Shown here: in pieces, positions 102 to 52,935 of the stretch
Layout of the letters: every line of letters begins with the position of its first letter
Position numbering within the stretch: position 1 is the first letter of the stretch
Virus record (IMG/VR): IMGVR_UViG_3300017971_000201
Coordinates: 32,001 to 96,000 of that record
Origin: a virus
Strand: one strand, 5' to 3'
DNA: 64,000 nucleotides
The notes under the pieces: generated by a model
What the model saw: the letters and a program-made list of their open reading frames with translations, nothing else
Told to the model about the DNA's origin: nothing
Databases searched by the model: none
Translations under genes and position numbers: made by a program

Positions 102-709
102 GCCTCCTCCTCCTCCTCCTCCTCGCGCTCCCGAGACCGAACACGCAGCTTCGCGAGGAACGGGCCGATGATCGGATCGGTCTTGTTCTCGGCGGCGGCC
201 CTCAAGAGCAGCTCGACCATGCCGCCGGCGTCCTGAAAGGCGCGGACCGACGCCTCGGCCTCTTCGATCGATGCTCGCTGCGCGCACGAGGTGAGGAAGC
301 CGGACAGCCCGTTGCGGTATCGCTCGAAGGCCGCCTTGATAGCGTCTTCGCGGTCCTGGTCGGCGGCCTCAACATCGGTCCTGTTGACCATGCTGGTCTC
401 CAGGATCGACAGGAACTCGCGGATGAGGTTCATCCGCTCCTCCCCCGGAGGAACCGTCCACTCCTTCGGGAGGGTCTCCGCCTCCGGGTGGGGTTCCTTC
501 CAGATGAGACGGCCCTCGCGCATCGTGGCGTCGGCATCGGCGTTGAGCTTCTCGCACACCGACGAGATACCGGCCCGAGCCTCGTCGTCGAACTCGTAGA
601 TCGGCATCGGGCCGACCGCCAGATCGATGTTGGCAACCGAGTCGGCGACCAGCTGACCAGCCGCGTCGGGTGGGAGTGCGAGCAACTGTTCAGTCGTGTA
701 TGCGGCCAT
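98..709 (-). CDS. hypothetical protein
   Basis: ATG at 709 lies 1 nt after the VWA gene stop. Protein-like composition with an acidic poly-E tail. Confidence 0.7.
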   Translation of the reverse strand: MAAYTTEQLLALPPDAAGQLVADSVANIDLAVGPMPIYEFDDEARAGISSVCEKLNADADATMREGRLIWKEPHPEAETLPKEWTVPPGEERMNLIREFLSILETSMVNRTDVEAADQDREDAIKAAFERYRNGLSGFLTSCAQRASIEEAEASVRAFQDAGGMVELLLRAAAENKTDPIIGPFLAKLRVRSREREEEEEEEA

Positions 710-710
710 C

Positions 711-1982
711 CTAGTACTCCTCATCCTCGTCGCCCTTGTCGTCGGGAATCGAGATGTGGTCACCCCAGGTCGTGGTCGGCGGCTTGTAGTCGCCCGTGGT
801 GACCCAGAGGCACCCCTGCATGTTGACGGGCATCCCGTTGGGCACGTCGATCATGCCGTCGGTGAACGCGATCACCGCACCGTCGAACCCGTCTTCGTCG
901 AGCAGCTCGAAGGCCGGGCAGAAGTTCGACCCGCCGCCGCCCTTCACCTCGATCTCGCACGCCTCCTCGACGGTCATGTCCGTGTGGACCGCCGCGTCGC
1001 AGACGATCGCGCGTATCTCGCAGCCCATCTCGTCCATGATCCCCTGGGCCTCGGACATCCCGCGCCGGATCTCGCGCTGGCTCATGGAGCCGGAGCTGTC
1101 GAGCAGGAAGACCACGTCGGCGTAGCCGCCCGCGCACTGCGAGGGGAGGATCGTCCCCAGGGAGTAGGACCGGCGGTTCGGCCGCAGGAACGAGTAGTCT
1201 TCGCGACGCCCGTTCTCGCCGCACCACTTCCTGAGCAGCTCGGTCCAGTCGAGCTTCGGGTGAAGCAGCTCGTCGATGTAGCGGCGCAGGCCGGCCGGAA
1301 GCGTGCCCTTGCTCTTCGAGCGCTGCTCGTGGTGAGCCGCCGCCTCGGCGAGCGTCATCTTCCACTCGTTCTCGAGCTTCTTCTGCGCCGAGCGGTCGCC
1401 GCGCGCCGCCTTCTTGCCGTTGGGCGTGCCGGCCAGGTCGTCTCGGCAGTCGCCCCAGCCCTCTCCACCCGCGCCGTTCGTGTCGACGGTGATGGAGCCG
1501 CCACCCTTGCACTTGATCTCCGTCTTCCCGGAGCCGTTGTCGCCCTTCATGAGGTAGGCGTAGATCTCCTCCATCGACATCCCGTGGAACTTGGGGTCGA
1601 GGAGCGCCCCCTTGGGCAGCTCGATCTCGCCGCACGCCATCTCCTCGATCCAGAAGTTGAAGGAGAGGTCGTGGGCGATGTTGGCGAGCAGGTGGTGCCG
1701 AGTGCCCTTCCGCGCCCAGAACAGGAGGGCCGGGTGGAGCGCCTCGTGGGCGACCACGCCGGCGATCTCCTTGTCGGAGAGCGTGGCAAGGTACTCGACG
1801 CTGAAGATGGCCGTGCCGTCCCGGGAGATCCCGGCCGTCTTGATCCCGTCTTCGGGCCGCGCGGCGCGGGGAGCCATGTTCATGGCGATCCGACCCAGGA
1901 AGGGGAGGCGCGCGACGAGCCTCGTGCGCGCCTTCCCGATCACGTAGGTGACATCGATCGCTGGGGCTTCGGAGCCGCTCAC
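711..1982 (-). CDS. putative metallopeptidase + VWA domain protein (DUF2201-like)
   Basis: HEALH zincin motif with downstream NIAHD; MIDAS LLDSSGSM, GGGGS and FTDG motifs; GTG start overlaps the AAA gene stop. Confidence 0.85.
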   Translation of the reverse strand: MSGSEAPAIDVTYVIGKARTRLVARLPFLGRIAMNMAPRAARPEDGIKTAGISRDGTAIFSVEYLATLSDKEIAGVVAHEALHPALLFWARKGTRHHLLANIAHDLSFNFWIEEMACGEIELPKGALLDPKFHGMSMEEIYAYLMKGDNGSGKTEIKCKGGGSITVDTNGAGGEGWGDCRDDLAGTPNGKKAARGDRSAQKKLENEWKMTLAEAAAHHEQRSKSKGTLPAGLRRYIDELLHPKLDWTELLRKWCGENGRREDYSFLRPNRRSYSLGTILPSQCAGGYADVVFLLDSSGSMSQREIRRGMSEAQGIMDEMGCEIRAIVCDAAVHTDMTVEEACEIEVKGGGGSNFCPAFELLDEDGFDGAVIAFTDGMIDVPNGMPVNMQGCLWVTTGDYKPPTTTWGDHISIPDDKGDEDEEY

Positions 1983-3121
1983 TTGGTCGACTCCGCGAAG
2001 AACTTGAGGACCGCGAGAACCCTCGGATCCTTCTTGTTCTTGTCGGCGGCGTCCACCAGCTTCGAGACGTCGCCACCGTTGGCCTGGAAGACCGAAACAC
2101 CAGCCGCCACGCACTCACGGCTCTTCTGGGAGACGTGCGCCAGGGCGAGGAGGAGCTTGATGTAGATCTTCTTGTCCTTGTCCTGGTTCATGGCGGCGAA
2201 CTCGCCGAGCGCCGTGACGAGCGCGGCCAGCCGGTCGGGCTCCTCGGGCGGGTGAGGCATCGCCTTCTCGGGATCGTCGAGCACTGCCTTCGGGTTCGGC
2301 AGCTCCTTCTGGAGCTTCACGAAAGAGACGAACTCGGTCCCGACGCCGGACCCGACCAGCCCCTCGGCCACGGCGCGGAGCGGACCGAAGTCGCCCTTCC
2401 CGAACTTGAGCGCATCCTCGTAGAGGAGACCGAGGTTGTGCCAGCTCCGGGGGGTGGCGAACTGACCGTTCTCCTTGTCCGCCTGGTTCGGGAGCTGGGA
2501 GAAGAACGCGGGCTTCCACGTGAGGAAGCCGCCGACCACCGGGGGGAGGCTCTGGCTCGCGGCCCAGTACATCCACTCCTCCAGCTCGGGCTCCAGGCTG
2601 ACCAGGCAGACCCGGTTGCGGAGCGGGGAGGGCAGCTCGCGGGCGCCCGCCTTGTCGCTGGCCCGGTTGCCGGTGAGGATGATCCGCACGTTGGGGCTCA
2701 GCTCGAGGTCACCCATGCTGCGCTCCTGGACGAGCTGGAAGCAGGCCGTCTGGACGGCGCGCTGCGCCTGGGTGATGTCCTCGAGCACGAGGACCCCGTA
2801 GGGATCGGAGCCGTCCGGCCCAGCCCCTTTGGCGAGCTGGCCGAGGAACTTGGGCGGGCAGAAGTCGGTGAACCGCTGCTCGGTCTTGTCGAACGTGACC
2901 GTGACCATGAACGGGACACCGCTCATGTCTTCCGGGAGGTGGCCCGTCAGCTCCCGTCTGACGGTCAGACCAGTCGTGCCCACCTTGGCGGCGCGCGCCT
3001 GCTCGGCCGCCCCGATCGCCTGGGCGAGCGCCGACTTTCCGATGCCGGGCCGGCCCAGGAAGAACAGCGGCACGCTGGGTGGTAGAACGGCCGCTAAGTT
3101 GAGGATCTCGTTGAAGTTCAT
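1979..3121 (-). CDS. MoxR-like AAA+ ATPase
   Basis: Walker A GRPGIGKS, Walker B-like VLVLED, TGNR, SPLRNR and ATPRSW motifs; adjacent to a VWA gene. Confidence 0.85.
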   Translation of the reverse strand: MNFNEILNLAAVLPPSVPLFFLGRPGIGKSALAQAIGAAEQARAAKVGTTGLTVRRELTGHLPEDMSGVPFMVTVTFDKTEQRFTDFCPPKFLGQLAKGAGPDGSDPYGVLVLEDITQAQRAVQTACFQLVQERSMGDLELSPNVRIILTGNRASDKAGARELPSPLRNRVCLVSLEPELEEWMYWAASQSLPPVVGGFLTWKPAFFSQLPNQADKENGQFATPRSWHNLGLLYEDALKFGKGDFGPLRAVAEGLVGSGVGTEFVSFVKLQKELPNPKAVLDDPEKAMPHPPEEPDRLAALVTALGEFAAMNQDKDKKIYIKLLLALAHVSQKSRECVAAGVSVFQANGGDVSKLVDAADKNKKDPRVLAVLKFFAESTK

Positions 3122-3148
3122 ATCGCTGGTTGTCTCTCCTCTGCACTG

Positions 3149-3157
3149 GTTCTACCC
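3149..3157 (-). promoter_or_regulatory. GGGTAGAAC repeated -10-like element
   Basis: Copies at 3149(-), 9777(-), 14053(-), 14091(+, GGGTATAAC), 15113(+), 63615(-) and 63653(+), all upstream of gene starts. Confidence 0.6.
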
Positions 3158-3225
3158 GGGTCTCGGGCGCGCCTGTGCCAGATTCCGAAAGAGCTGAGGA
3201 GGCGATCCGTTTCGTCTCCTCACCC

Positions 3226-3254
3226 CTCCCAACAACTCAGCGATTCATTCTCAC
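3226..3254 (-). promoter_or_regulatory. bipartite motif GTGAGAA-N11-GTTGTTGRGAG, copy 1
   Basis: One of five copies, all with an 11-nt spacer. Confidence 0.7.
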
Positions 3255-3268
3255 GAGATTTCTGGAAA

Positions 3269-3886
3269 TCAGGTTCCGGCGCCCACCGTAGGGGCCTCCC
3301 GGGCCTCCCGGGTCCAGCAGACCGGGCAGCCGGCCGCGTACTCCGAGACCCCGCCCACCTTGATCTGGCCGACCTTGGGCTCCTTGCCGATGTAGACCGA
3401 CCGGGTGGCGGTGTTGAAGGATGCGCAGAACTGGCAGTCGGCCTTGCAGTCGATCCGATGGTCGGCGCAGGCCACGATCTTGGGCATCGAGTCGCCGAAC
3501 GGCTCGCCCTCGGAGGTGGCGGGACACCCGGAAACGACTACGTCCGCCCACTGGCGGATGCGCTGGATCGACGGCCAGAGCAGATCTTCGTCGTCCCAGA
3601 GAGATGGCTCGTCGATCCAGACGACGTCCGCGCCACAGCTGGAGGCGATGCTCTCGACATCGTCGGCCGACTCGGTATCGAGGCTGGGGAACTCGTCACC
3701 GTGCTTCGTGACGAGCGTCCCCAGGCGGTCGCCCTTCTCGGGGTTCTCGGGATCTGGCCGGATGGACCGCACCGGACGGATGAGGATGACCGTCTTTCCG
3801 AGACCCTGTAGACGCTGGCAGGTCAGGAGCGCCTTGGTGCTTTTCTCGGCGTGGGTCGGGCCGACGTAGGCGATGAGCAGCTTCAT
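3269..3886 (-). CDS. tdk: thymidine kinase (type II, divergent)
   Basis: GPTHAEKST P-loop variant, DVVWIDE, SG..ATSEGEPFG, and a Zn-lasso CQFC...VGGVSEYAAGCPVC. Confidence 0.8.
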   Translation of the reverse strand: MKLLIAYVGPTHAEKSTKALLTCQRLQGLGKTVILIRPVRSIRPDPENPEKGDRLGTLVTKHGDEFPSLDTESADDVESIASSCGADVVWIDEPSLWDDEDLLWPSIQRIRQWADVVVSGCPATSEGEPFGDSMPKIVACADHRIDCKADCQFCASFNTATRSVYIGKEPKVGQIKVGGVSEYAAGCPVCWTREAREAPTVGAGT

Positions 3887-4110
3887 TCCTCGATCCTCAC
3901 GTCAATGCCCCACACGCCCTTCTCCTCGTAGGGCTCGGAGAGGGCCTCGAACACCTGCCGTGACCCGTACAGGTGGTCCTCGGGGTCGTCCGTCTCGACC
4001 CGGAAGAGGTCGCCCATCGCCAGGTCGCGCATCCGCATCCGGCGCTCTTCCCGCTGGCCGTGCTCGTCATCGGCCACGAGGATGATCTGCCGCTTGGTCC
4101 GCGTCATCAC
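3883..4110 (-). CDS. hypothetical protein
   Basis: ORF coupled to both neighbours by 4-nt overlaps. Confidence 0.65.
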   Translation of the reverse strand: MMTRTKRQIILVADDEHGQREERRMRMRDLAMGDLFRVETDDPEDHLYGSRQVFEALSEPYEEKGVWGIDVRIEE

Positions 4111-4589
4111 GCGGCTTCCTCCTCAGTCTGCTCCTCTTCCTCGAGCCGGGCCTCTCGGGCGAGCATCTCGCGCATCCGGCGCCTGGCCGCCGCGTGGTTG
4201 ATCGGCCTGGAAGCGATCTTCTCCTCCGTCCCGTTGCCGTGGTCAGCTGGACGGCCCATGTTCTCGTCGATCGTGATGATCTCGAAGTTTGCTCCGCAGG
4301 CCGGCTTGTCCGGCACTCGCGTCACGACCAGCTCGCCCTCGTTGTCGTTGCTCCAGGGATCGGCGACCTGCAAGGCCCAGTGGACGACCTCGGTCTTGCC
4401 GCACTCGAGCACCTCATGATCGGTCTCGTAGGCGATCTCCTGCACGAAGTCGATGGCCTTCTCGGCCAAGTTGCGAGCGACCTGGCGGAAACCGACGAAG
4501 CGCTTGATCCGGCGCAGCTTCGGCCTCCTCGAAACACGGCGGTACGACAGCACGATGGGCACTGTCCCGCCTTGCACGACGTTCTCCAT
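4107..4589 (-). CDS. hypothetical protein
   Basis: ATG preceded by GGAGG; lies within the operon. Confidence 0.65.
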   Translation of the reverse strand: MENVVQGGTVPIVLSYRRVSRRPKLRRIKRFVGFRQVARNLAEKAIDFVQEIAYETDHEVLECGKTEVVHWALQVADPWSNDNEGELVVTRVPDKPACGANFEIITIDENMGRPADHGNGTEEKIASRPINHAAARRRMREMLAREARLEEEEQTEEEAA

Positions 4590-4597
4590 GTCGCCTC

Positions 4598-6403
4598 CTA
4601 CAGGCCGTTCCAGTCCTTGAGAAAGAGCCGCTCTTCGGCGGCGATCTTGTTGATCTCCTCGTTGAGGTTCTCCACGTCGCCGAACTCATTCCAGTCTACG
4701 CGGAGGACGCGAGTGTAGCGCGACATCACGTCGGCGAGCATCTCGTGCTTGTCATGGATGCGGCGGAGGTAGTCGAGGGGCACGCCGGCCTCCTCGGTGC
4801 GGGCGCGGCGTTTCATGCGGTCGTGGCAGGTCTTGGGGTCAGTCCGCAGGTAGACGATCACGTCAGGGTAGCGGACAAAGCGCTTCAGCGTCCCGAACGT
4901 ATCCTCGTAGATTCCCCACTCGGCCGACGTCATGTTGCCGTCCTCGAAGACGGTCCGGCCGAAGCAGCCATCGGCGAAGATCGTGCGGTCCTGCACGACA
5001 TCGACGCCGTTGTTCGTCAGCTCAGCCGCCAGGGTGTGCTGACGGAACCGAGCCTGGAGCGCGTGCATCTGGAACGTGAACCCCCAGCGCTTGGGGTCGG
5101 CGTAGTAGAGGCCGAGCAGCTCCTTGAAGCGTCCCTTGAGCGGCTCGAACAGGACGTGGGTCGGGCCATCGTAGCCGGTACGGAGTCGCGCGAGCATGTT
5201 GGCACACTCGGTGTTGTGCGTCACCTGGAAGTTCCCGAGCAGGAACCGGCCGTCCCCGTCGAGTGTGAAGCCGGCGTAATCGCCTCGACCCAACGGCTCG
5301 ACCGTGAAGCCGAATCGCAGCGGATTCTTCTTCTGCTTGCGTGGTTGGGGCTTCTTACGCTCGACGCGCATAGGCAGGAACGTCATGTCGCCAGAGATGG
5401 ACATTCGGTAGTAGGAGCGGTCGTAGCCCGGTACGGTCTTGATCGAACGCACAACCCGCAGTCCCAGAGAGCGCGCGACGAAGGTGATGTCGTCGGCGAG
5501 ATGCTCACCCCGCTGGATGATCTCGAAGGAGCCCTTGCACAGGTGCCCGTCCGTGTCGAGAAGCCCGGCCAGCAGCCTTGCTCTGATCTCGCGCGAACCG
5601 TACTTGCAGCGCGCGGGAATGCTGTAGCCGTAGTCCCGCTGCTCCGGCGCCATCAGATGCCGCAGCTTCTCCAGCAGCGGGTTGCCTTTCCCGTCGCGCA
5701 CGAGCCCGAACGTCGGGCAGCGGTCGGGATAGTCGTAGCGGCTCAGGCGGCACCCCTCGGTTGGAGCGAAGTCGCGCAGGTAGTCAATCAGCTCCTCGTC
5801 CGGGAACGTCAGCTGGACACCCTGGCTGAGATCCTTGCGACCATCCCCCAGCCAGAGGCCGATGAAGTAGGGGTCGATCTCCGGCTCGATCACCGGCGGG
5901 AAATCGACCGGAACGGTGAACAGCTTTTGTCTCTCACGCCACGTCTTGTCACGTGTCAGGAACTCGTTGAGTGGAATGTCGATGACCTCGTCCGTCAGCG
6001 TATCCACGACGGTCAGCACGTGTACGTCGTTGCAGATCCACGACGGCGCGCGTTTCGGCTTGATCTCGAACATGGGGCCGGTGCCGCGAGTCGTCGAGCG
6101 CACCTCGCGCGGCTGGCTGTCCGGCCCCATGAGCCGCTGGCCAACCTCGAGTCCACCGGCCTTGACGGTGTGACCATCGTAGAGCAGCACCGGCGTTTCC
6201 GGGTCCAGGCACTTCCCTGTACCGATGTTGGCCTCGATCCCAACGAAGAGACCGCGCCGCTCGCGAAGGTGGGGAAGGGCCTGCATGATCGCGTTCGTGT
6301 CGATCTCCTGAATCGCCTGCATCTGGGCCTGCACGTCGGCCTCCTCGTGTTCGTCGTCTTTGGGTTGGTTGGACATGCTGTTTCCGTCCGATCCGCCGGT
6401 CAT
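4598..6403 (-). CDS. deoxynucleoside kinase (dNK family) interrupted by an intein
   Basis: IEANIGTGK|T P-loop split by the intein; FEP, YYADPKRWGFTFQ, QDRTIFAD, PDVIVYL and RRARTEE motifs. Alternative start at 6376. Confidence 0.9.
   Translation of the reverse strand: MTGGSDGNSMSNQPKDDEHEEADVQAQMQAIQEIDTNAIMQALPHLRERRGLFVGIEANIGTGKCLDPETPVLLYDGHTVKAGGLEVGQRLMGPDSQPREVRSTTRGTGPMFEIKPKRAPSWICNDVHVLTVVDTLTDEVIDIPLNEFLTRDKTWRERQKLFTVPVDFPPVIEPEIDPYFIGLWLGDGRKDLSQGVQLTFPDEELIDYLRDFAPTEGCRLSRYDYPDRCPTFGLVRDGKGNPLLEKLRHLMAPEQRDYGYSIPARCKYGSREIRARLLAGLLDTDGHLCKGSFEIIQRGEHLADDITFVARSLGLRVVRSIKTVPGYDRSYYRMSISGDMTFLPMRVERKKPQPRKQKKNPLRFGFTVEPLGRGDYAGFTLDGDGRFLLGNFQVTHNTECANMLARLRTGYDGPTHVLFEPLKGRFKELLGLYYADPKRWGFTFQMHALQARFRQHTLAAELTNNGVDVVQDRTIFADGCFGRTVFEDGNMTSAEWGIYEDTFGTLKRFVRYPDVIVYLRTDPKTCHDRMKRRARTEEAGVPLDYLRRIHDKHEMLADVMSRYTRVLRVDWNEFGDVENLNEEINKIAAEERLFLKDWNGL
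5213..6211 (-). mobile_element. intein with LAGLIDADG homing endonuclease (333 aa)
   Basis: Starts CLDPETPV; block B CNDVHVL; LAGLIDADG motifs IGLWLGDG and LAGLLDTDG; ends VTHN followed by extein Thr. Confidence 0.92.
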
Positions 6404-6418
6404 ATACCATCCGCGTCT

Positions 6419-9004
6419 TTAGGCGTTGTCACCCCCGAGTAGCTCCGCAGCTGTGAAGCGCCGCAGGCACTTCATGCAGGTGGTCTTCTTGCCGCTCTCC
6501 TTCATCCGATCGACCACCTTGCGCGAGATGAGCTTGATCTCGCCCTTCTCCTTGCAGCCTGGACAGAAGTAGGCGCCCGAGGTCAGCGCTGACGGCTCTC
6601 GCGCGTCCAGGCGGGCGAGCCTCGCGCGCGCGATCTGGGCGTAGTCCTCATCCTTGTCGCAGGTCACGAACTGGAAGCCGAGCCTCTTCGCGGCCACTGG
6701 CGTCGAGCCCGTCCCGCAGAACGGATCAAGCACGACTCCGCCCTCCTGCGTGACGAGCCGGATGAGGTACTCCATTAACGCAAGCGGCTTCTGGGTCGGG
6801 TGGCTGATCACCTCGTCCTTGTGCTCGTCGTGCTCCTCGAAGCTGTCACCCTCATGGTTGAAGACCAGCTGACAGCGGCGGCAGTAGGACCAACGCTCCT
6901 TCGTCGCTGCCTTGGGCGTATAGAAGAAGCGGCAGCTAGCAGCGAGCTTTTCTTCTACGGTAAGCCCGCATGTAGGCGTTGTGTTCGGATGACGCGGATG
7001 GATCGTCAGAAAGAAGCGGCTTGCGCCTCCTGCGTCATCGAATCCGGTTCTTGGCTGTAAGGATCCCACGCGACCTTTACCGCTATCCGCGATAGCCGGA
7101 CTGGCCGAACGCCGGATGGCAATAGGATTGGTGGGTACGGTGCTCTGGCTGCGCCCACTCTGCCGATCAAGCTCGGCGACCGGACAGCCAGGCGCGCACT
7201 CGTACTCCTGGACCTCTTCCTTGCCATCGTCGTCGGCGTAGGTCTGATCTTCGCCGCGCTGAGTGCGAGCCTTCAGGTTGATCCGCTGGTCTGCACCATC
7301 CTCCGGCAGGTTGCGCTTCACCGCCGTTCCGGTGCGTACCCGCTTCGATCCGACCAGCTGGCACTCGTCAGTAGCACAATGAACGAACCATTTGCGCCAT
7401 CCAGCCGGAATCAGTTCACGGATAACTTCAAGGCGCGCACTTGGGCGCGTAGCCGTTTGTTCTCCGCCCGAATTCTTACAAGTTCTCGTTCCACCTTCCG
7501 GTGGTCCTTGCTGTGGTCTCTCCGATCCGTGACTTCCAGGTTCCTCGGCCGGTTGTCGTCCTTGATCCCGTTCCGGTGGTGAACGATCTCCGTACGCGCC
7601 AGCGGTCTGCCCAGCGTCATCGCGGCAACCGCCCTGTGCTCCAACACGTACTTGCCCTTCACCATCTTCCGAGCGAACGGTCGCAGCGGTTCTGGGAGCA
7701 CTTCGATCATCACGTGCAGGTAGCCGTTGCGGTCCTTGTATCTGCCGCCCTTCCACTGCGACGAATTCTCCCGCAGGAACTTGCCCGTCGCCGCGTCCGC
7801 CATCTTCTTGCGAGACGCTTTCGTGTGGCGTTTCCCTAGTCGGCTGAGGTTGGCCTTCGCATGGCACGCCCGCGAGCAGTACTTCCTTCGCCCGTTCCTC
7901 GCCCATGCCGGTGTGACCTCGAAACTCCGCCGGCAGTGCTTGCAGGTGATCTTCACCCACTGCACCTTGCGCTTCTTGCGGCGCGCTTGTCCAGCGCACG
8001 CCTGAGTACAGAAGCGTCGTTTCGCGAGCCGCGCCGGCATCCCGCGCATCAGCTCTCCGCAGTGCTCGCACGGCTTCGTCAACGCGGTAGTAGGCATAGA
8101 TCGTGGCACGCTGCTCCTCCGTCGCATCGGGTACGAGCGTGTACCAATCATACTCGATATGTGAGAGGATCACGTTCGATGGCCACCGTCCGTCCTTCGA
8201 CTCGCACGCGATGTTCTTGAAGCCGCCTTTGTGGCAGGGAGAGCCTCCCTTGCCCTTCGGGTAGCTCCAGCCTGGGTTCGGGCCGACGCGTGCCGCGTCG
8301 ATGTTCAGCGCGCCTGTTCCGTGTTCCAGAACGTGGTCGGCGTACCGGCCGTTGAACGGCTTGCGGGCCAGCACGATCGGCTCGTGCGCCGGCTTGAGAG
8401 CTGTTCCCCAGCCCTTCCATGCCGCACCTTCCTCGGTCGCCGGCTCATCCCGGATCGTCCGGCCGCCGCGCCTGTCCTTGCTCGAGATCCCCCTGTTGGT
8501 CGTGTGCTCACGCCGCCGGCCCTCGCCAGTGCGGACCTCGTCGTTCGCGAACTTGATCGCGTGCGAGTCCGAGCGGCCGGTCGTCAGCAGCGCGTCGATG
8601 CCCTTCGAGATGTTGTGCGACTTCGGGAAGCCGGTGCCTGTGAGCCAGTCGATCTGGTCGTAGACCTCGAAGCCGGCGAACCGGATCGCCATCACGCCCC
8701 AGTCGAATGTGCGCGTCCCGAAGAATGACATCAGCCAGGCGCCGGGCTTCAGGACACGGTAGACCTCGCGCCAGAGCGTCGGGCCGGGGACGAACCTGTC
8801 CCACTCGTTCTCCATGAAGCCGCCGCCGGCCGGCGCGAAATCCTCACCGGCGAGCCAGGCGCGCATGACCTCAGCTGGATCAGGCTGGTGGACGCCCAGG
8901 CCGTACGGGCTGTCGGTCACACAGGAGTCGATGCACTCGTCGGGGAGCTGCCGCAGGTACTCCGCAGCATCGCCAACCCCGACTGCATTCAGGTAAGACA
9001 CCAA
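6419..9004 (-). CDS. DNA amino-methyltransferase (N6-A/N4-C, beta class) with a large internal insertion
   Basis: Motif IV VTDSPYG precedes HPTQKP and motif I VLDPFCGTGST; conserved GFPKS, GWGTALKPAHEPI, GRWPSN and GGASRFF; C-terminal CxxC pair. Confidence 0.85.
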   Translation of the reverse strand: MVSYLNAVGVGDAAEYLRQLPDECIDSCVTDSPYGLGVHQPDPAEVMRAWLAGEDFAPAGGGFMENEWDRFVPGPTLWREVYRVLKPGAWLMSFFGTRTFDWGVMAIRFAGFEVYDQIDWLTGTGFPKSHNISKGIDALLTTGRSDSHAIKFANDEVRTGEGRRREHTTNRGISSKDRRGGRTIRDEPATEEGAAWKGWGTALKPAHEPIVLARKPFNGRYADHVLEHGTGALNIDAARVGPNPGWSYPKGKGGSPCHKGGFKNIACESKDGRWPSNVILSHIEYDWYTLVPDATEEQRATIYAYYRVDEAVRALRRADARDAGAARETTLLYSGVRWTSAPQEAQGAVGEDHLQALPAEFRGHTGMGEERAKEVLLAGVPCEGQPQPTRETPHESVSQEDGGRGDGQVPAGEFVAVEGRQIQGPQRLPARDDRSAPRTAATVRSEDGEGQVRVGAQGGCRDDAGQTAGAYGDRSPPERDQGRQPAEEPGSHGSERPQQGPPEGGTRTCKNSGGEQTATRPSARLEVIRELIPAGWRKWFVHCATDECQLVGSKRVRTGTAVKRNLPEDGADQRINLKARTQRGEDQTYADDDGKEEVQEYECAPGCPVAELDRQSGRSQSTVPTNPIAIRRSASPAIADSGKGRVGSLQPRTGFDDAGGASRFFLTIHPRHPNTTPTCGLTVEEKLAASCRFFYTPKAATKERWSYCRRCQLVFNHEGDSFEEHDEHKDEVISHPTQKPLALMEYLIRLVTQEGGVVLDPFCGTGSTPVAAKRLGFQFVTCDKDEDYAQIARARLARLDAREPSALTSGAYFCPGCKEKGEIKLISRKVVDRMKESGKKTTCMKCLRRFTAAELLGGDNA
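7411..8109 (-). CDS. HNH homing endonuclease nested out of frame in the methyltransferase
   Basis: CxxC zinc fingers, NUMOD3-like GKRHTKASRKKM, and EHRAV...VHHRNGIKDDNRPRNL; GGAGG lies 6 nt before GTG 8109 (alternative ATG at 8097). Confidence 0.85.
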   Translation of the reverse strand: MPRSMPTTALTKPCEHCGELMRGMPARLAKRRFCTQACAGQARRKKRKVQWVKITCKHCRRSFEVTPAWARNGRRKYCSRACHAKANLSRLGKRHTKASRKKMADAATGKFLRENSSQWKGGRYKDRNGYLHVMIEVLPEPLRPFARKMVKGKYVLEHRAVAAMTLGRPLARTEIVHHRNGIKDDNRPRNLEVTDRRDHSKDHRKVERELVRIRAENKRLRAQVRALKLSVN

Positions 9005-9021
9005 TGCCCCCGGCCCGTCGC

Positions 9022-9759
9022 TTACTCGCCGTCATCCCCCGGGCCAGAGTCTACCTCGTCCTTCAGACGTTGGGCGATTTCTTCGAGCTTCTCGCGCATC
9101 GAAGCGCAAGCCGCGTCAAACTCGTCGATTACACCATCGACGATCTCAGCCGCCTCGCCGATGACCGGAGCGCGCATCTCGCGGCGCAGCTCGGCCGCTC
9201 GCTGTCGGATCTCCTGGAGGACGCGCTCCTGAGCGCCGGACCGCAGCCGGTTGTAGGCTTCCTCGACCTTGTTGAGCTTCGTCTCGAGTTTCGCCATGCG
9301 CTTGATGGCGGCATCGGCCTTCTCGCGCTCGCCCTCGGCTAACGCCTTCCAGGCGTTGTCAACCGTCTCGAGAGCCTCCTGGGCGCGCGGAGGGTTCTTC
9401 GCCACCAGGGCCTCGCCCGACATCTGTACGGCGTCCACGAACCAGTCGGCCCTGACCCGGGCCGCGTCCTGGACGGCCGATGACCATCCATCACGCGCCT
9501 TGAGCACTGGAACGCCCCACACACGGCCCATCTCGTGCGCCTGCTTCGAGAAGTTGTGGGAGACGGCTATCGTACAGACGACGATCGCGTCGGCCGGCTG
9601 TGTGTCGAGCCGGCCCTTGCCTCCCTGTGTCTGCTGGTCGATCAGCTCGATGTCGAACGCGTTGCGTGCCCAGACGGGGATGTTCTTCTCCTTACCACCG
9701 ATCACGAGCACGCGGCGGCGTAACGGACCAGACGGCTGATCGCCGTTCCTGTTGGACAT
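9022..9759 (-). CDS. DUF2325-like domain + coiled-coil protein
   Basis: RVLVIGG...ADAIVVCTIAVSHN...GVPVLKAR pattern; GGAGG before ATG 9759; GGGTAGAAC at 9777-9785. Confidence 0.6.
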   Translation of the reverse strand: MSNRNGDQPSGPLRRRVLVIGGKEKNIPVWARNAFDIELIDQQTQGGKGRLDTQPADAIVVCTIAVSHNFSKQAHEMGRVWGVPVLKARDGWSSAVQDAARVRADWFVDAVQMSGEALVAKNPPRAQEALETVDNAWKALAEGEREKADAAIKRMAKLETKLNKVEEAYNRLRSGAQERVLQEIRQRAAELRREMRAPVIGEAAEIVDGVIDEFDAACASMREKLEEIAQRLKDEVDSGPGDDGE

Positions 9760-9779
9760 GGTGTCCTCCAAGGACCGTT

Positions 9780-10169
9780 CTACCCGGCGTCGGCCACATC
9801 TCGGCCAAGATCGGCCAGGGCCTCGACAGCATCAGCTGGCCAGCGCGGCTTGGTCTCGCGCGTCTTGAGCGTCGTATCGGTGACCTCGACGACCTCGGCT
9901 TCCCAGCCGTCCGAGACCAGGTGCTTGAACCTGTTGACGATCTTGGAGAACCGCCGCGCCCAGGGAACGCTGTCGAACTCCCACGCGTCGTCGATGTTGC
10001 ACGTCGTGTACCACGACCTGTCGGGCGTTATCCGACCATTCTTCCAAGAGCGCCCCGTCTCGGTGGCCGCAGCCCATACGCAGTTCAGGTCCCCGTCGTC
10101 GTCCATGCGCTGGAAGCGCAGGAGAATCCTGGTCGTTGCGCTGTCCTGGATGGTCTCGCGCTCGATCAT
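9780..10169 (-). CDS. hypothetical protein (paralogue of 10166-10663)
   Basis: ATGA overlap; ends ...DAVEALADLGRDVADAG. Confidence 0.65.
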   Translation of the reverse strand: MIERETIQDSATTRILLRFQRMDDDGDLNCVWAAATETGRSWKNGRITPDRSWYTTCNIDDAWEFDSVPWARRFSKIVNRFKHLVSDGWEAEVVEVTDTTLKTRETKPRWPADAVEALADLGRDVADAG

Positions 10170-31983: not shown

Positions 31984-33959
31984 TACGCACCAGCCGAGGA
32001 GAGGAACAGCTTGAGCCTGGTGTCTCCGGCGATAGTGATGTCAATTTGGCCGGTGGTCGTTCCCGAGCCGGTGATGTCGATGATCTCGATCTCATCGAAA
32101 GGGGCGCTGTAGAAGTTCTGCTCGTCCCACGAGGCAAAGCCGCCGCAAAGGGCTCTGATGGTATGACCCATGCCAGCCGAGAAGCTGTGAGAGTTCAGCG
32201 GACCCGGGTTGTAGCCAGAGGACGGGTACCAACCACTCCCAGCCCACGGTGTGATCTGGGTGAAGCCATCGCCAATTGGACCTGTTGGTCCGGGAGCGCC
32301 TGTGACACCCGGGTCACCAGTCGGCCCAGTCTGGCCGATCTCGCCGACCGTCACCTCGCCATCGCCGGTCTCGACGACCTGTCCGCCGCCGTCGCGGAAG
32401 TTGACCGTGTGGAACGGGCCGCCGGCGAGAGGAGAGCCGGCATTCTGGATGTTGATCGCTCCCAGCTTCGCGCCCGCCTGAGACAAGAGGACGCGGCCCG
32501 GCTGCGTGGTAGAGGCGTCCGGCAGCGGCGGCTTGCCGCCTGGCATGTGGTGGATGAGGCGCTGATCGGCCATGCCGGTCTCAAGCGGAACGAAGGCCGG
32601 GAAAATGAACCGGATGGTTGTCGCCGCATCGGCCTCCGCATCGACCTCAACGCCGAGGATCTTCTTCAGCTCCAGTGTCCAGCGACGCGATGTCAGGCCG
32701 CCCGACGAGGCGTTCGGCCCCTGGTACTCGTCGGCCAGCTCGATCAGCTCGTCCGAGAAGATCGTCGCGATCTCGTAGTAGAGCCCATCGGCTCCGAGTA
32801 TCGTGTCGCCCTCCTCCAGCTCGCCCTGCGCCTGACCGCCGGCGATCGTGACGGTCTTCTGTGCGTTCGAGAAGGTGTAAACACCGGTGAGCGTTGCCTC
32901 TACAGGACCGGTCACACGACCGAAGATGACACGCCTGGTGTCGATTCCATCGAGTAGCCGATAGCCGGTCGTGGCGTCCAGCACGATCGAGATGTTGCGC
33001 ACGTCGTCGTTGGGCGACGAGATGGCCCCGCGCGCGCCCTCGGCTCCCTGCCCGTCGAGGGTGATCTCGGGCTTGTGATCCCGGTTGACCTCCGAGAACG
33101 AGCCGGAGACGTTGACCGACGTGTCGCCGGCCTCGATCAGGTAGTCGTTGCTTCGCAGCACCACCAGGACGAAGCCGAGCCTGCCGCCCATCGATGGAGC
33201 GCTCTGGTCGGCCTCGAGCCGCTCGGAGAGCGTGTCGTAGACGGTGGAGTCCAGCCCGATCCGAGCTGCGGCCATCTCGTTGACGATCTCGACAGCGGTC
33301 TCAAGATCTTCGACTGAGCCGGCGGGCATGAAGCCGAATTCGACGCCGTCGTAGGCCAGCGGCGCGTCCCGCAGCATGTCCAAAGGGTGCGTGTGGCCGG
33401 ACGCCGTCTGTACGACGCCGGCCACGACCGTGTGGAAGTGGCCATCATCGGTAGAGGAGGTACCGTTGAGACTGGCGTCCAACTCGACCGTGTGGGTGTG
33501 GCCGAAGCGCAACACGAGCCTGTAGGAGATCGTCATCGCCCCGGCGTTTCCGGTCACGACACAGATCAGCGTCTCGTCGAAGGCCACCGGTCCAGCTGAC
33601 CTGGTGATGATCTCGGCCGATGTCTGCGCTGACCCGTCGGCTGTGTACGAAGCTCGGGCGATCACGTGGATCGGGAAGTCACCGGGGGGCTGTCCGGTGA
33701 AGTCCAGGGAGACGTTCGAGTCCAGCGCGACGGTCAAGTTGCCAGGGTCGTCTTGTGAGGCCGTCTTGAGGAGTGAGAACCCCTCGGCAGGGTCGGTCAC
33801 CAGGTTGAGCACCGGCGAGGCCACGGTCGGCGTGAAGCCGACGTAGACGCCCTTCGGCATCCCGCCGAACTTCTGGACCAGAGGGGCCGACTGCCACTGG
33901 TCGGAGTAACCGAGCAGTGCGTTGCCCAGGGTGAAGTACTCGACGGGGTAGATGGCCAT
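31983..33959 (-). CDS. tail fibre protein, paralogue 2 (His-rich insert)
   Basis: PKGVYVGF, SMGGRLG, YYEIATI, FHTVNF and collagen repeats. Confidence 0.75.
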   Translation of the reverse strand: MAIYPVEYFTLGNALLGYSDQWQSAPLVQKFGGMPKGVYVGFTPTVASPVLNLVTDPAEGFSLLKTASQDDPGNLTVALDSNVSLDFTGQPPGDFPIHVIARASYTADGSAQTSAEIITRSAGPVAFDETLICVVTGNAGAMTISYRLVLRFGHTHTVELDASLNGTSSTDDGHFHTVVAGVVQTASGHTHPLDMLRDAPLAYDGVEFGFMPAGSVEDLETAVEIVNEMAAARIGLDSTVYDTLSERLEADQSAPSMGGRLGFVLVVLRSNDYLIEAGDTSVNVSGSFSEVNRDHKPEITLDGQGAEGARGAISSPNDDVRNISIVLDATTGYRLLDGIDTRRVIFGRVTGPVEATLTGVYTFSNAQKTVTIAGGQAQGELEEGDTILGADGLYYEIATIFSDELIELADEYQGPNASSGGLTSRRWTLELKKILGVEVDAEADAATTIRFIFPAFVPLETGMADQRLIHHMPGGKPPLPDASTTQPGRVLLSQAGAKLGAINIQNAGSPLAGGPFHTVNFRDGGGQVVETGDGEVTVGEIGQTGPTGDPGVTGAPGPTGPIGDGFTQITPWAGSGWYPSSGYNPGPLNSHSFSAGMGHTIRALCGGFASWDEQNFYSAPFDEIEIIDITGSGTTTGQIDITIAGDTRLKLFLSSAGA

Positions 33960-51075: not shown

Positions 51076-52935
51076 CTACCGCGTCTTGAGCTTGCGCCGC
51101 TTCCCCTTCTTCGGCCGGATGCCCAGACCGCCGAGCACCTTCTTCTTGAGGTGCTCGGGCGCTCCAGCCAGCTGAGCCTCGAGCCACGCCTTGCCCTTTG
51201 GGTTCTCGAGCGGCTTCGCCAGGATCCGCGTGGCGAACCGGTGCATCCTCGGCTCGATCTCGGTGCGGAACTCGACGCTGCTCGTGTCGTACGTCCCCTT
51301 GTTCTCGATCTCGTAGTAGCGGTGACCGAACTTCTGCTTGTAGACCTGGGCGGCCTTCGCCACCGCCTTGTGCGAGGCGACCACATCTGCGTCAGGAACC
51401 GTCCGTCCCCGTGCTTGGTTGCGGGCGCGGGCAACGTCGAGAGGGGTGACCACCATCACCATGGAGCAGTCGTAGCCGAGGTCTTCGAGCGCCCTCTTGC
51501 CTTTCAGGATGTAGGTGGGGTTCTTGGCGGTGCCATCGACGACCATGCCGAGCCGCCCGCGCGCGAATTGCTCGCGCTGATTCATCATCGTGTACCACGA
51601 GCGGTCGTGCAGCTCCTTCCCGATCGATGGGAACTTGGGGTTGTCAGTCGGTAACTGGAAGGCCGTCTTGAGATCGATGCCCTTCTGCCGTACGCGCCAG
51701 GCGAAGATCTCGTCCATGCTCAGCGCCTTGAGCCCGAAGGCTGCGCCGAGCTGGCTGCCGAGCTTCCCGAACATCGTGCCGGCGGTGAAGCTCTTGCCCG
51801 AGTTGTGGTGGACGGCTCCCTCGGCCACGTAGTTCGCCCAGCGCGGCACGGTCAGGTCGTAGTAGACCCCCTCACCCGCTGGCTTGATCGTCCGCACTCG
51901 TTTCCACATGCTATGATAACGGCATGACGCCACAGCAGCTTGATGAGATGGAGCGCCTCTACCAAGAGGGCTGGAACTCGGTCCAGCTCGGTCTTCGCTA
52001 CGACCGAACGCCGCCGACGATCCGCTACCACCTACGGAAGCGCGGTGCGACGGTGCGCTCCCGTGGAGAGGCGAACCGGCTCCGCGCCCCGAGCGCGCGC
52101 TGTCAGGTAGACGAAGCGAAACTGCGCGAGCTTCACGGTCGGGGTCTGAGAACGAGGGAGATCGGGTCTGCTCTTGGTGTAAGCGCGGAGACTGTTCGCC
52201 GCCGCCTGCGAGACCTGGGCATCGCTCGCCACCAGCGCGGAGCGCCTGGGGAGCGGAATCGTCACTGGCAGGGGGGCCGCATCGTGGACGACGATGGCTA
52301 CGTGCTCGTCCACCGACCGGATCACCCGTTTGCGACGAAGGCCGGCTACATGCGCGAGCACCGGCTGGTGATGGAGGCGCACCTGGGTCGCTACCTTGAT
52401 CCGTCTGAGGTTGTCCACCACGCAGACAAGAACCCGCAGAACAATGCGCCGTCGAACCTGAAGCTCTACGCGACGAACGCAGAGCATCTTCGGGACGAAC
52501 AGACCGGAGTTCCGAAGAACGTGTCACCGGAAGGTCGCCGCAGGCTGCAAGCCGCTGGTCGCAAGAGTGGCGCAACTCGGAGAGCGAAAGCCAGCCGGAA
52601 GGCGTCAGGAAGCGGTGCTCGTCAGTCACGGTGACGCGCGACCCGTCCTCCAGCTCGATCTCGTGCAGCTCCGCCACACCCTTCACAAACGGCGCGTTGC
52701 ACTCGACCGGCTCGAACCCATCCGGTGTCAGTGCAAGTACGGTGATCGGCCCTCCGCGCTCGGCCAGCGCGTCTACGCGCTCCTCCAGTCCCGTACGCGG
52801 ATCGAGGATCTTCGTGTGCGGCGCGATGCAGCCCATACCGCCGCCGAGGAAGATCACCTTGAGGATGTGCGGATCGAAGACGCCTTCGTGCAGGCTCCGG
52901 GCAGCTGCCGGAACGATCCGCTCGAACAGGCACAC
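51076..52935 (-). CDS. P-loop kinase (AAA_33/zeta-toxin-like) interrupted by an intein
   Basis: KVIFLGGGMG|SGKS, GRLGMVVDGT and GYD.SMV.V.TPLDVARARN..RGRTVP; GTG 52935. Confidence 0.8.
   Translation of the reverse strand: MCLFERIVPAAARSLHEGVFDPHILKVIFLGGGMGCIAPHTKILDPRTGLEERVDALAERGGPITVLALTPDGFEPVECNAPFVKGVAELHEIELEDGSRVTVTDEHRFLTPSGWLSLSELRHSCDQRLAACGDLPVTRSSELRSVRPEDALRSSRRASGSTAHCSAGSCLRGGQPQTDQGSDPGAPPSPAGARACSRPSSQTGDPVGGRARSHRRPRCGPPASDDSAPQALRAGGERCPGLAGGGEQSPRLHQEQTRSPSFSDPDREARAVSLRLPDSARSGRGAGSPLHGSAPSHRASVGGSGSSAAFGRSEDRAGPSSSPLGRGAPSHQAAVASCRYHSMWKRVRTIKPAGEGVYYDLTVPRWANYVAEGAVHHNSGKSFTAGTMFGKLGSQLGAAFGLKALSMDEIFAWRVRQKGIDLKTAFQLPTDNPKFPSIGKELHDRSWYTMMNQREQFARGRLGMVVDGTAKNPTYILKGKRALEDLGYDCSMVMVVTPLDVARARNQARGRTVPDADVVASHKAVAKAAQVYKQKFGHRYYEIENKGTYDTSSVEFRTEIEPRMHRFATRILAKPLENPKGKAWLEAQLAGAPEHLKKKVLGGLGIRPKKGKRRKLKTR
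51909..51917 (+). promoter_or_regulatory. extended -10 (TGcTATGAT) for a leaderless HNH mRNA
   Basis: Lies 6 nt before ATG 51924; no RBS present. Confidence 0.6.
51924..52634 (+). CDS. HNH homing endonuclease, antisense within the intein
   Basis: Two HTH repeats, WQGG...DGYV, and YMREHRLVMEAHLGRYL...VVHHADKNPQNNAPSNL. Confidence 0.88.
   Translation: MTPQQLDEMERLYQEGWNSVQLGLRYDRTPPTIRYHLRKRGATVRSRGEANRLRAPSARCQVDEAKLRELHGRGLRTREIGSALGVSAETVRRRLRDLGIARHQRGAPGERNRHWQGGRIVDDDGYVLVHRPDHPFATKAGYMREHRLVMEAHLGRYLDPSEVVHHADKNPQNNAPSNLKLYATNAEHLRDEQTGVPKNVSPEGRRRLQAAGRKSGATRRAKASRKASGSGARQSR

Follow-up and report, generated by a model that had tools for sequence, protein, structure and literature searches.

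Positions 6,419 to 9,004 of a 64,000-nucleotide (nt) stretch of viral DNA (positions 32,001 to 96,000 of the IMG/VR virus record IMGVR_UViG_3300017971_000201; termed the window) hold a DNA methyltransferase (methylase) gene with an in-frame insert, and a second gene, for a predicted HNH homing endonuclease, is encoded within this insert in another frame of the same strand. The window is part of a 160-kb fragment of an uncultured giant phage whose genome is rich in homing elements, and the phage collection searched contains no DNA near-identical to it. Both frames announced in a preliminary description of this DNA exist: the 861-amino-acid (aa) methylase open reading frame (ORF) and the out-of-frame HNH ORF in the +1 frame of the same strand. 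The insert is probably a homing cassette that is translated as part of the host enzyme. The features of the locus are:

6419..9004, minus strand: predicted beta-class N6/N4 DNA methyltransferase ORF, 861 codons, stop-free (PF01555)
7367..8158, minus strand: inserted element of 264 codons (792 nt, methylase residues 283-546), delimited by codon alignment with the contig L033
7411..8109, minus strand: HNH homing-endonuclease gene in the +1 frame, 232 codons plus TGA (Pfam, PHROG)
8114..8120, minus strand: Shine-Dalgarno-like GGAGGAG, 4-6 nt 5' of GTG 8109, built from methylase codons
8110..8158, minus strand: N-edge of the insert, about 16 codons in the methylase frame only, then about 10 that overlap the HNH start; holds the ribosome-binding site (RBS) of the HNH gene
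7445..8053, minus strand: methylase-frame spacer, about residues 318-520, hydrophilic, rich in Gly, Ala, Arg, Glu, Gln and Pro, predicted disordered
7367..7435, minus strand: C-edge of the insert, residues 524-546, a conserved methylase-frame block, the last 15 codons of which lie past the HNH stop

The methylase ORF matches PF01555 (97 bits) on both sides of a central gap and PHROG 67 at 1.5e-56. Motif IV (near residue 31) and motif I (near residue 762) occur in the beta-class order, IV then I, and the insert separates the two, as described beforehand. The motif IV variant of the window, Asp-Ser-Pro-Tyr, is common to the insert-free relatives P0002 and P0003, which are the closest methylase homologs (77% and 73% identity, respectively). 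In an AlphaFold2 model of the 861-aa protein, built with 62 aligned sequences, the methylase core has a predicted local distance difference test (pLDDT) score of 80-98, and Foldseek relates this core to CcrM, M.BceJIV, M1.HpyAVI, M.RsrI and M.PvuII. With beta-class features, intact catalytic motifs and an S-adenosylmethionine-binding fold, the product is predicted to be an enzyme.

P0002 is encoded on L033, a related 275-kb viral contig with an empty site in a methylase 77% identical to that of the window. Since this empty site is available for alignment, the boundaries of the insert are fixed at 8158..7367, and the span first proposed (7380..8157) proves accurate to a few codons. The net gain compared to L033 is +262 codons, with two empty-allele codons replaced; five codons directly 5' of the insertion site also differ from L033. 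Made up of whole codons and without a stop, the insert preserves the methylase frame; it lies between His282 and Cys548. Like Cys603 and Cys607, these two residues are invariant or almost invariant across the methylase family, and the four look like the putative ligands of a zinc ribbon.

The HNH ORF matches PF13392 (HNH_3) at 34.7 bits (cut-off 24.8), with weak matches to NUMOD3 and zinc-finger repeats, while PHROG HNH families match the short ORF down to 1e-19; a PDB sequence search with the HNH returns a weak zinc-finger match only. Cys4 zinc-finger repeats are N-terminal and the HNH_3 core is C-terminal. In alignment A5 of the HNH, His177, His178, Asn180, Asn190, His199, His203 and four Cys residues are invariant. 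The longest possible HNH ORF is 8151..7411 (minus strand; 246 codons, from ATG 8151). Based on the conserved GGAG and start position in relatives, the HNH most likely starts instead at GTG 8109, by internal initiation, to give a product of 232 rather than 246 aa. GGAG is present 6-9 nt 5' of the predicted HNH start in 12 of 12 distinct relatives with a placeable start, and in L009 and L046 a GGAGG stands six nt ahead of an ATG that aligns exactly with GTG 8109 of the window. The methylase codons GAG GAG had been proposed as the RBS of the HNH gene; the GGAGGAG does precede a start, but this start is GTG 8109 and not ATG 8151.

HNH-based searches of viral, metagenome and genome contigs yield 184 loci with an HNH homolog on the searched strand, 29 of which have the HNH nested within a longer ORF in a different frame. 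A Gly-Arg-Trp-Pro-x-Asn motif is found 27-40 codons 5' of the HNH start in 13 loci (11 distinct), and the offset of the methylase frame from the HNH frame is +2 in every motif-bearing locus, just like in the window. L053 and L047 are added to the same-site set by other criteria. The site is occupied in L009-L011, L046-L056 and L126 and in the proteins P0017 and P0057, which are assessed as proteins only. The occupied host methylases are 33-40% identical to that of the window and to each other, their HNHs are 40-60% identical, and most members of the methylase family are insert-free. Because the HNHs are more alike than their host methylases and most methylases are empty, this patchy distribution fits a mobile element. 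The closest HNH relative (60% identical) is that of L009, in which the host methylase ORF (2715-4886) looks rearranged: the ORF starts at the middle motifs, the third insertion site holds a copy of an N-terminal methylase segment, and a further methylase start is observed downstream (6389-6691). HNH relatives are also out of frame in long ORFs of L071, L072, L077, L104, L115, L119 and L198 that are without the three-site methylase motifs; these hosts may be other genes or other sites.

The ShiLan domain of gp65-type mycobacteriophage methylase is an in-frame insert with an out-of-frame HNH (Gosselin et al. 2023, PMC9957025; Arsenault et al. 2025, PMC11855218), for which a splicing-free, translated design is already proposed (PMC11855218). 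The window shares with the ShiLan domain: (i) a PF01555 host, with about 35% identity of the window methylase to that clade, (ii) a homologous hidden HNH (33% identity, 2e-14), and (iii) a stop-free in-frame insert with the HNH on the same strand in another frame, a patchy distribution and no intron or intein signatures. By contrast, the site of the window is about 70 residues downstream, based on alignment with ShiLan gp65 and g59 of Cylindrospermopsis phage Cr-LKS3, and is not the Trp-Gly-Thr-Ala-Leu-Lys-Pro site of ShiLan. The HNH of the window is in the +1 frame (+2 in ShiLan), its GTG start is at nt 50 of the insert (18 in ShiLan), and its TGA is 44 nt before the insert end (in the last four bases in ShiLan). 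While the first 11 or so residues of the ShiLan insert repeat downstream host sequence, no such repeat is found at 8158..7367. The window lineage also has a clear, conserved RBS, whereas the ShiLan paper reports none and proposes leaderless initiation. Thus, the analogy to the ShiLan domain drawn in the preliminary description stands for the kind of element, the homologous HNH and the host family, but not for the site and the frame. ShiLan-site elements are found separately in L015, L016, L022, L023, P0010 and P0013. The kind of element is already in print, and the window represents a separate, widespread lineage at a different site. In phage ShiLan itself (L001), the methylase appears split (693-3575 and 3715-3966), and its last 60 or so residues, including motif I, match the small gene gp67 and not gp65.

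How readily the host frame stays open by chance depends on the phase of the HNH. For the phase of the ShiLan type, chance alone would be expected to leave it open (P(0) = 0.3-0.9). In the +1 phase of the window, permutation of synonymous codons within the HNH gene, with the protein and codon composition kept, gives 4.7-5.4 expected stops in the methylase frame, compared to 0 observed (P(0) = 0.001-0.003). The 12 other distinct same-site elements, the HNH genes of which have a G+C content of 0.41-0.62, have 3.3-10 stops expected each; the 13 distinct elements including the window contain 0 stops compared to about 84 expected in sum, and those of low G+C contain none of about 10 expected each. 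When loci are searched for by the motif, with no requirement for an open frame, the frame is open in 13 of 13 (11 distinct), with no counter-example. In the window, HNH codons ahead of a codon starting with AA, AG or GA never end in T (0 of 63, versus 17 of 169 other codons; Fisher p = 0.008). As a control, the same relative frame was scored in the remaining long ORFs of the window, restricted to non-overlapping ones since shadow ORFs inflate the value; only 2% of the 247-codon stretches are free of stops. The open methylase frame is not due to chance, and the earlier concern that such a frame is fairly often open in high-GC DNA is refuted; the codon choice of the HNH keeps the host frame open. 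As openness can be demonstrated statistically in the +1 phase, this lineage supplies evidence that the published cases could not. Since selection keeps the methylase frame free of stops, the insert is most likely translated through and not spliced.

Selection differs between the two frames of the overlap. Among the relatives compared, the ratio of nonsynonymous to synonymous differences (pN/pS) is 0.45-0.57 in the HNH frame and 1.15-1.43 in the methylase frame, where identity between relatives is 18-37%. With pN/pS low in the HNH frame and above 1 in the methylase frame, the HNH appears to be a working gene and the host-frame spacer appears free to drift, apart from stop avoidance. Selection for a hydrophilic spacer is rejected, as the hydrophobic content is not below that of permuted controls and only stop avoidance is detectable.

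The edges of the insert behave differently. The C-edge block is kept in the window, L010, L011, L052, L054, L126, P0017 and P0057 and runs into the zinc-ribbon hairpin of the methylase itself; differences between L010 and L011 in this block number 5, 5 and 14 at methylase codon positions 1, 2 and 3, respectively. In the N-edge, conserved residues often differ in codon (3 of 6 for one pair and 6 of 9 for a second pair), and the HNH frame is closed by stops in L010 and L011. Based on these third-position changes and the closed HNH frame of the N-edge, the edges are read as coding sequence of the host frame that moves along with the element. The AlphaFold2 model of the window protein predicts a strand (284-290) and a helix (296-323) that start in the N-edge (pLDDT 70-87), a strand (524-528), a helix and a second strand (540-547) at the C-edge (pLDDT 71-88), and residues 318-520 in between at pLDDT 27-40. 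The predicted 861-aa product is, in short, a confident core with folded edges and a disordered middle. That the edges look like folded protein, as first noted, agrees with their methylase-frame conservation and with pLDDT 70-88 in the window, but not with the model of the relative L010.

An alternative is that the HNH is carried by an unrecognized self-splicing intron, group I-like or of a new class, that is removed from the mRNA. Phage group I introns commonly hold HNH genes, divergent introns can escape covariance models, and the ShiLan authors could not fully exclude an intron (PMC11855218, section 3.5). However, Rfam intron families (group I/II) have no match in the window at E<=10 or in L009, L010, L011 and L035 at E<=1. 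A ribozyme would have to fit into the 49 nt of the insert that precede the HNH ORF and the 44 nt that follow it, and the RNA folding energy is like that of shuffles (z -0.57). A spliced intron needs neither a length divisible by three nor a stop-free host frame, yet the open frame is seen in 13 of 13 loci; nor does it need edges that are conserved at the protein level with third-position changes. An intron is, thus, very unlikely. The intein termini reported as lacking at the outset are indeed not apparent: Pfam detects no Hint domain in the 861-aa methylase, although the same search did detect Hint and LAGLIDADG in the neighboring kinase, and the end residues of the insert vary among relatives, with no conserved nucleophile or His-Asn and with one relative that is without a Cys after the insert.

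Further support for a mobile history comes from a second, decayed element in the same gene:

6932..7018, minus strand: remnant of a second element, 29 extra in-frame codons with 9-nt direct repeat flanks, identified by comparison with L035 and L033

In the syntenic relative L035, the methylase (2501-4864) has about 216 extra codons at a third site, between a duplicated Arg-Phe-Phe, and the 29 codons of the remnant correspond to the two ends of this insertion. The L035 insertion hides an intact 192-aa HNH (3781..4359) in the +2, ShiLan-type phase, with a stop a few bases short of the insert end, a ShiLan-like design. The 9-nt repeat that flanks 7018..6932 is likewise of the ShiLan-repeat type. 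L033 has nothing inserted at the site of the remnant, and L035 is empty at the main site of the window. By this comparison, 7018..6932 reads as the in-frame deletion remnant of a hidden-HNH element, and L033, L035 and the window are the empty, occupied and in-frame-deleted states, as expected from a homing cycle and from inserts whose translation has to remain possible. The presence of an in-frame decayed element in the same gene implies that such inserts are tolerated as translated sequence. Gaps of 150-985 nt elsewhere in methylase genes are observed by tblastn with an insert-free query in L007 (4278-5263), L005, L017, L039 and L040 and suggest additional insertion sites in the methylase family.

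The same observations bear on the idea of a domesticated cassette, in which the HNH and the methylase cooperate as a nuclease-protection pair or anti-defence module and homing plays no part. Members of the HNH family recur within methylase genes, and this linkage of nuclease and modification resembles restriction-modification logic, an idea raised in PMC11855218. Presence is patchy among close relatives, however, with L033 and L035 both empty at the site of the window; a decayed copy is found at another site of the same gene, and close HNH relatives are free-standing. Because of this patchiness, the decayed copy and the free-standing relatives, the gain, decay and loss cycle of selfish homing genes is favored over a fixed function, and domestication is the least likely of the alternatives considered.

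Taken at a rough probability of 0.8, the element is a non-splicing, read-through homing cassette inside a conserved methylase gene. The non-splicing homing element anticipated in the preliminary description is, thus, supported by the empty allele, the selection on the HNH, the 13 of 13 open frames and the lack of an intron or intein signal. Homing itself (cleavage of the empty allele and self-copying) is suggested only indirectly, by the empty and occupied alleles and the patchy distribution. Several points weigh against this interpretation. Part of the N-edge conservation may reflect the RBS (and, in L010, a promoter) and not protein folding. The confident edges of the window model are not reproduced in L010, where their pLDDT is <56. 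Pairing of the two edges, and a zinc clasp that would join them, is a hypothesis; B-type relatives have no zinc ribbon, and a zinc clasp is therefore not general. The purifying selection seen in the methylase exons may for the most part be older than the insertion. The published ShiLan studies are purely computational (PMC9957025, PMC11855218).

Another possibility is that the methylase is inactivated and its frame kept open for a different reason, such as avoidance of polarity on the downstream kinase gene or of harm by a truncated protein. Phages can often do without their methylases, the insert separates two putative zinc ligands, and the methylase region directly before the insertion site is poorly modelled (pLDDT 37-48). 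On the other hand, the catalytic motifs are all intact, and pN/pS compared to the empty allele L033 is 0.28 for the N-terminal and 0.18 for the C-terminal part of the methylase. The open-frame rule is also observed in elements of unrelated genomic contexts, and the conserved methylase-frame edges are hard to explain for a useless product. Inactivation is, thus, considered unlikely.

In the read-through cassette proposed here, the operon mRNA would be translated twice, into the methylase and the HNH. Ribosomes from the methylase start would read through the insert to form a methylase of about 95 kDa, from the surface of which some 200 disordered, hydrophilic residues would loop out. The folded edges, probably with zinc binding by His282 and Cys548, would hold the ends of the loop together. 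Ribosomes that start at GTG 8109 would make the 232-aa HNH. In a co-infected cell, this enzyme would cut alleles without the insert close to the conserved motif immediately 5' of the site, and the cassette would be copied in as the cut is repaired from the occupied allele.

The HNH is probably read from the operon mRNA, as no promoter is found for the HNH and a GGTAGAAC box lies ahead of the upstream gene. A sigma-70 scan of 7200..9300 detects no promoter, and no copy of the GGTAGAAC box precedes the HNH. The hexamer TATGAT, present at 8152..8147 and at 51912, had been taken as a promoter sign; with 3 copies in the window compared to 5 expected by chance, it is given no weight. An internal HNH promoter in the window is dropped on these grounds. 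Programmed +1 frameshifting to reach the HNH is likewise unlikely, with the RBS and starts conserved and the HNH frame closed by stops just upstream in L010 and L011. In L010, a sigma-70 match (11/12, extended -10) is observed at 2949-2977, inside the N-edge of the same-site element and about 24 nt 5' of the HNH start and its AAGGAG site; the N-edge may double as a nuclease promoter in some hosts, and other members of the family may have their own transcript.

The gene that immediately precedes the methylase (9771..9022) has an exact copy of the GGTAGAAC box, which is recurrent in the phage, at 9784..9777 (minus strand), 6 nt 5' of its start. The downstream neighbor of the methylase is a deoxynucleoside kinase (6403..4598, minus strand) that has a Hint and LAGLIDADG intein in its P-loop region (Pfam), whereas the kinase ortholog of L035 (5735..6565, 276 aa) is intein-free. 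The position of the GGTAGAAC box suggests one transcript for gene 9771..9022, the methylase and the kinase. A second HNH paralog of the window (52251-52466, plus strand) has 37% identity over 80 residues, and two further HNH paralogs are found elsewhere in the 160-kb record.

Other homing systems share parts of this design. Inteins with out-of-frame or antisense homing endonucleases are known (bioRxiv 10.1101/2025.01.02.630785). As in the window, the endonuclease gene of such inteins is overprinted on an in-frame insert, the host-frame product of which is only a linker; the inteins, however, have Hint splicing blocks and are removed as protein, while the window element is without Hint. HNH enzymes of group I introns, such as I-HmuI of Bacillus phage SPO1, use DNA-binding repeats and target conserved phage coding sequence. 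The HNH of the window similarly has DNA-binding repeats and would be aimed at a conserved phage gene, but the I-HmuI type relies on RNA splicing and does not keep the host frame open, and no ribozyme is detectable in the window. The Seg and Mob enzymes of T4 are free-standing homing endonucleases that persist without splicing and, like the HNH of the window, represent splicing-free homing genes in or next to an important gene. Homing genes of the Seg/Mob type are intergenic, divide the host gene into two polypeptides or come with a spare copy of it, whereas the host protein of the window stays one chain with a loop.

The usual view is that, to persist in an essential or conserved gene, a homing endonuclease must reside in a self-splicing intron or an intein. 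An alternative without splicing is proposed in the ShiLan papers, where a host frame open beyond chance could not be shown. The 0 stops compared to about 84 expected in 13 elements are direct population-genetic evidence of translation of the insert. The natural allele set (empty in L033, occupied in the window and decayed at 7018..6932), with a defined nuclease RBS and start, provides a clean experimental system, and the predicted loop-out architecture could guide the engineering of large insertions into enzymes. For annotation, over-long methylase ORFs may conceal a second gene. It is reasonably likely that such cassettes offer homing endonucleases a third general route to reside in protein-coding genes, in addition to introns and inteins, one that relies on evolved adaptor edges and stop-avoiding codon choice and, in the window, also on a host zinc-ligand pair. 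Of these components, the adaptor edges and the zinc-ligand pair may tie the ends of the disordered spacer together such that the host enzyme keeps working. The elements would be a distinct and widespread family in phages of marine, freshwater and sediment samples, and the marks of this family would be the site after Gly-Arg-Trp-Pro-x-Asn, the +1 frame of the HNH and an RBS of its own.

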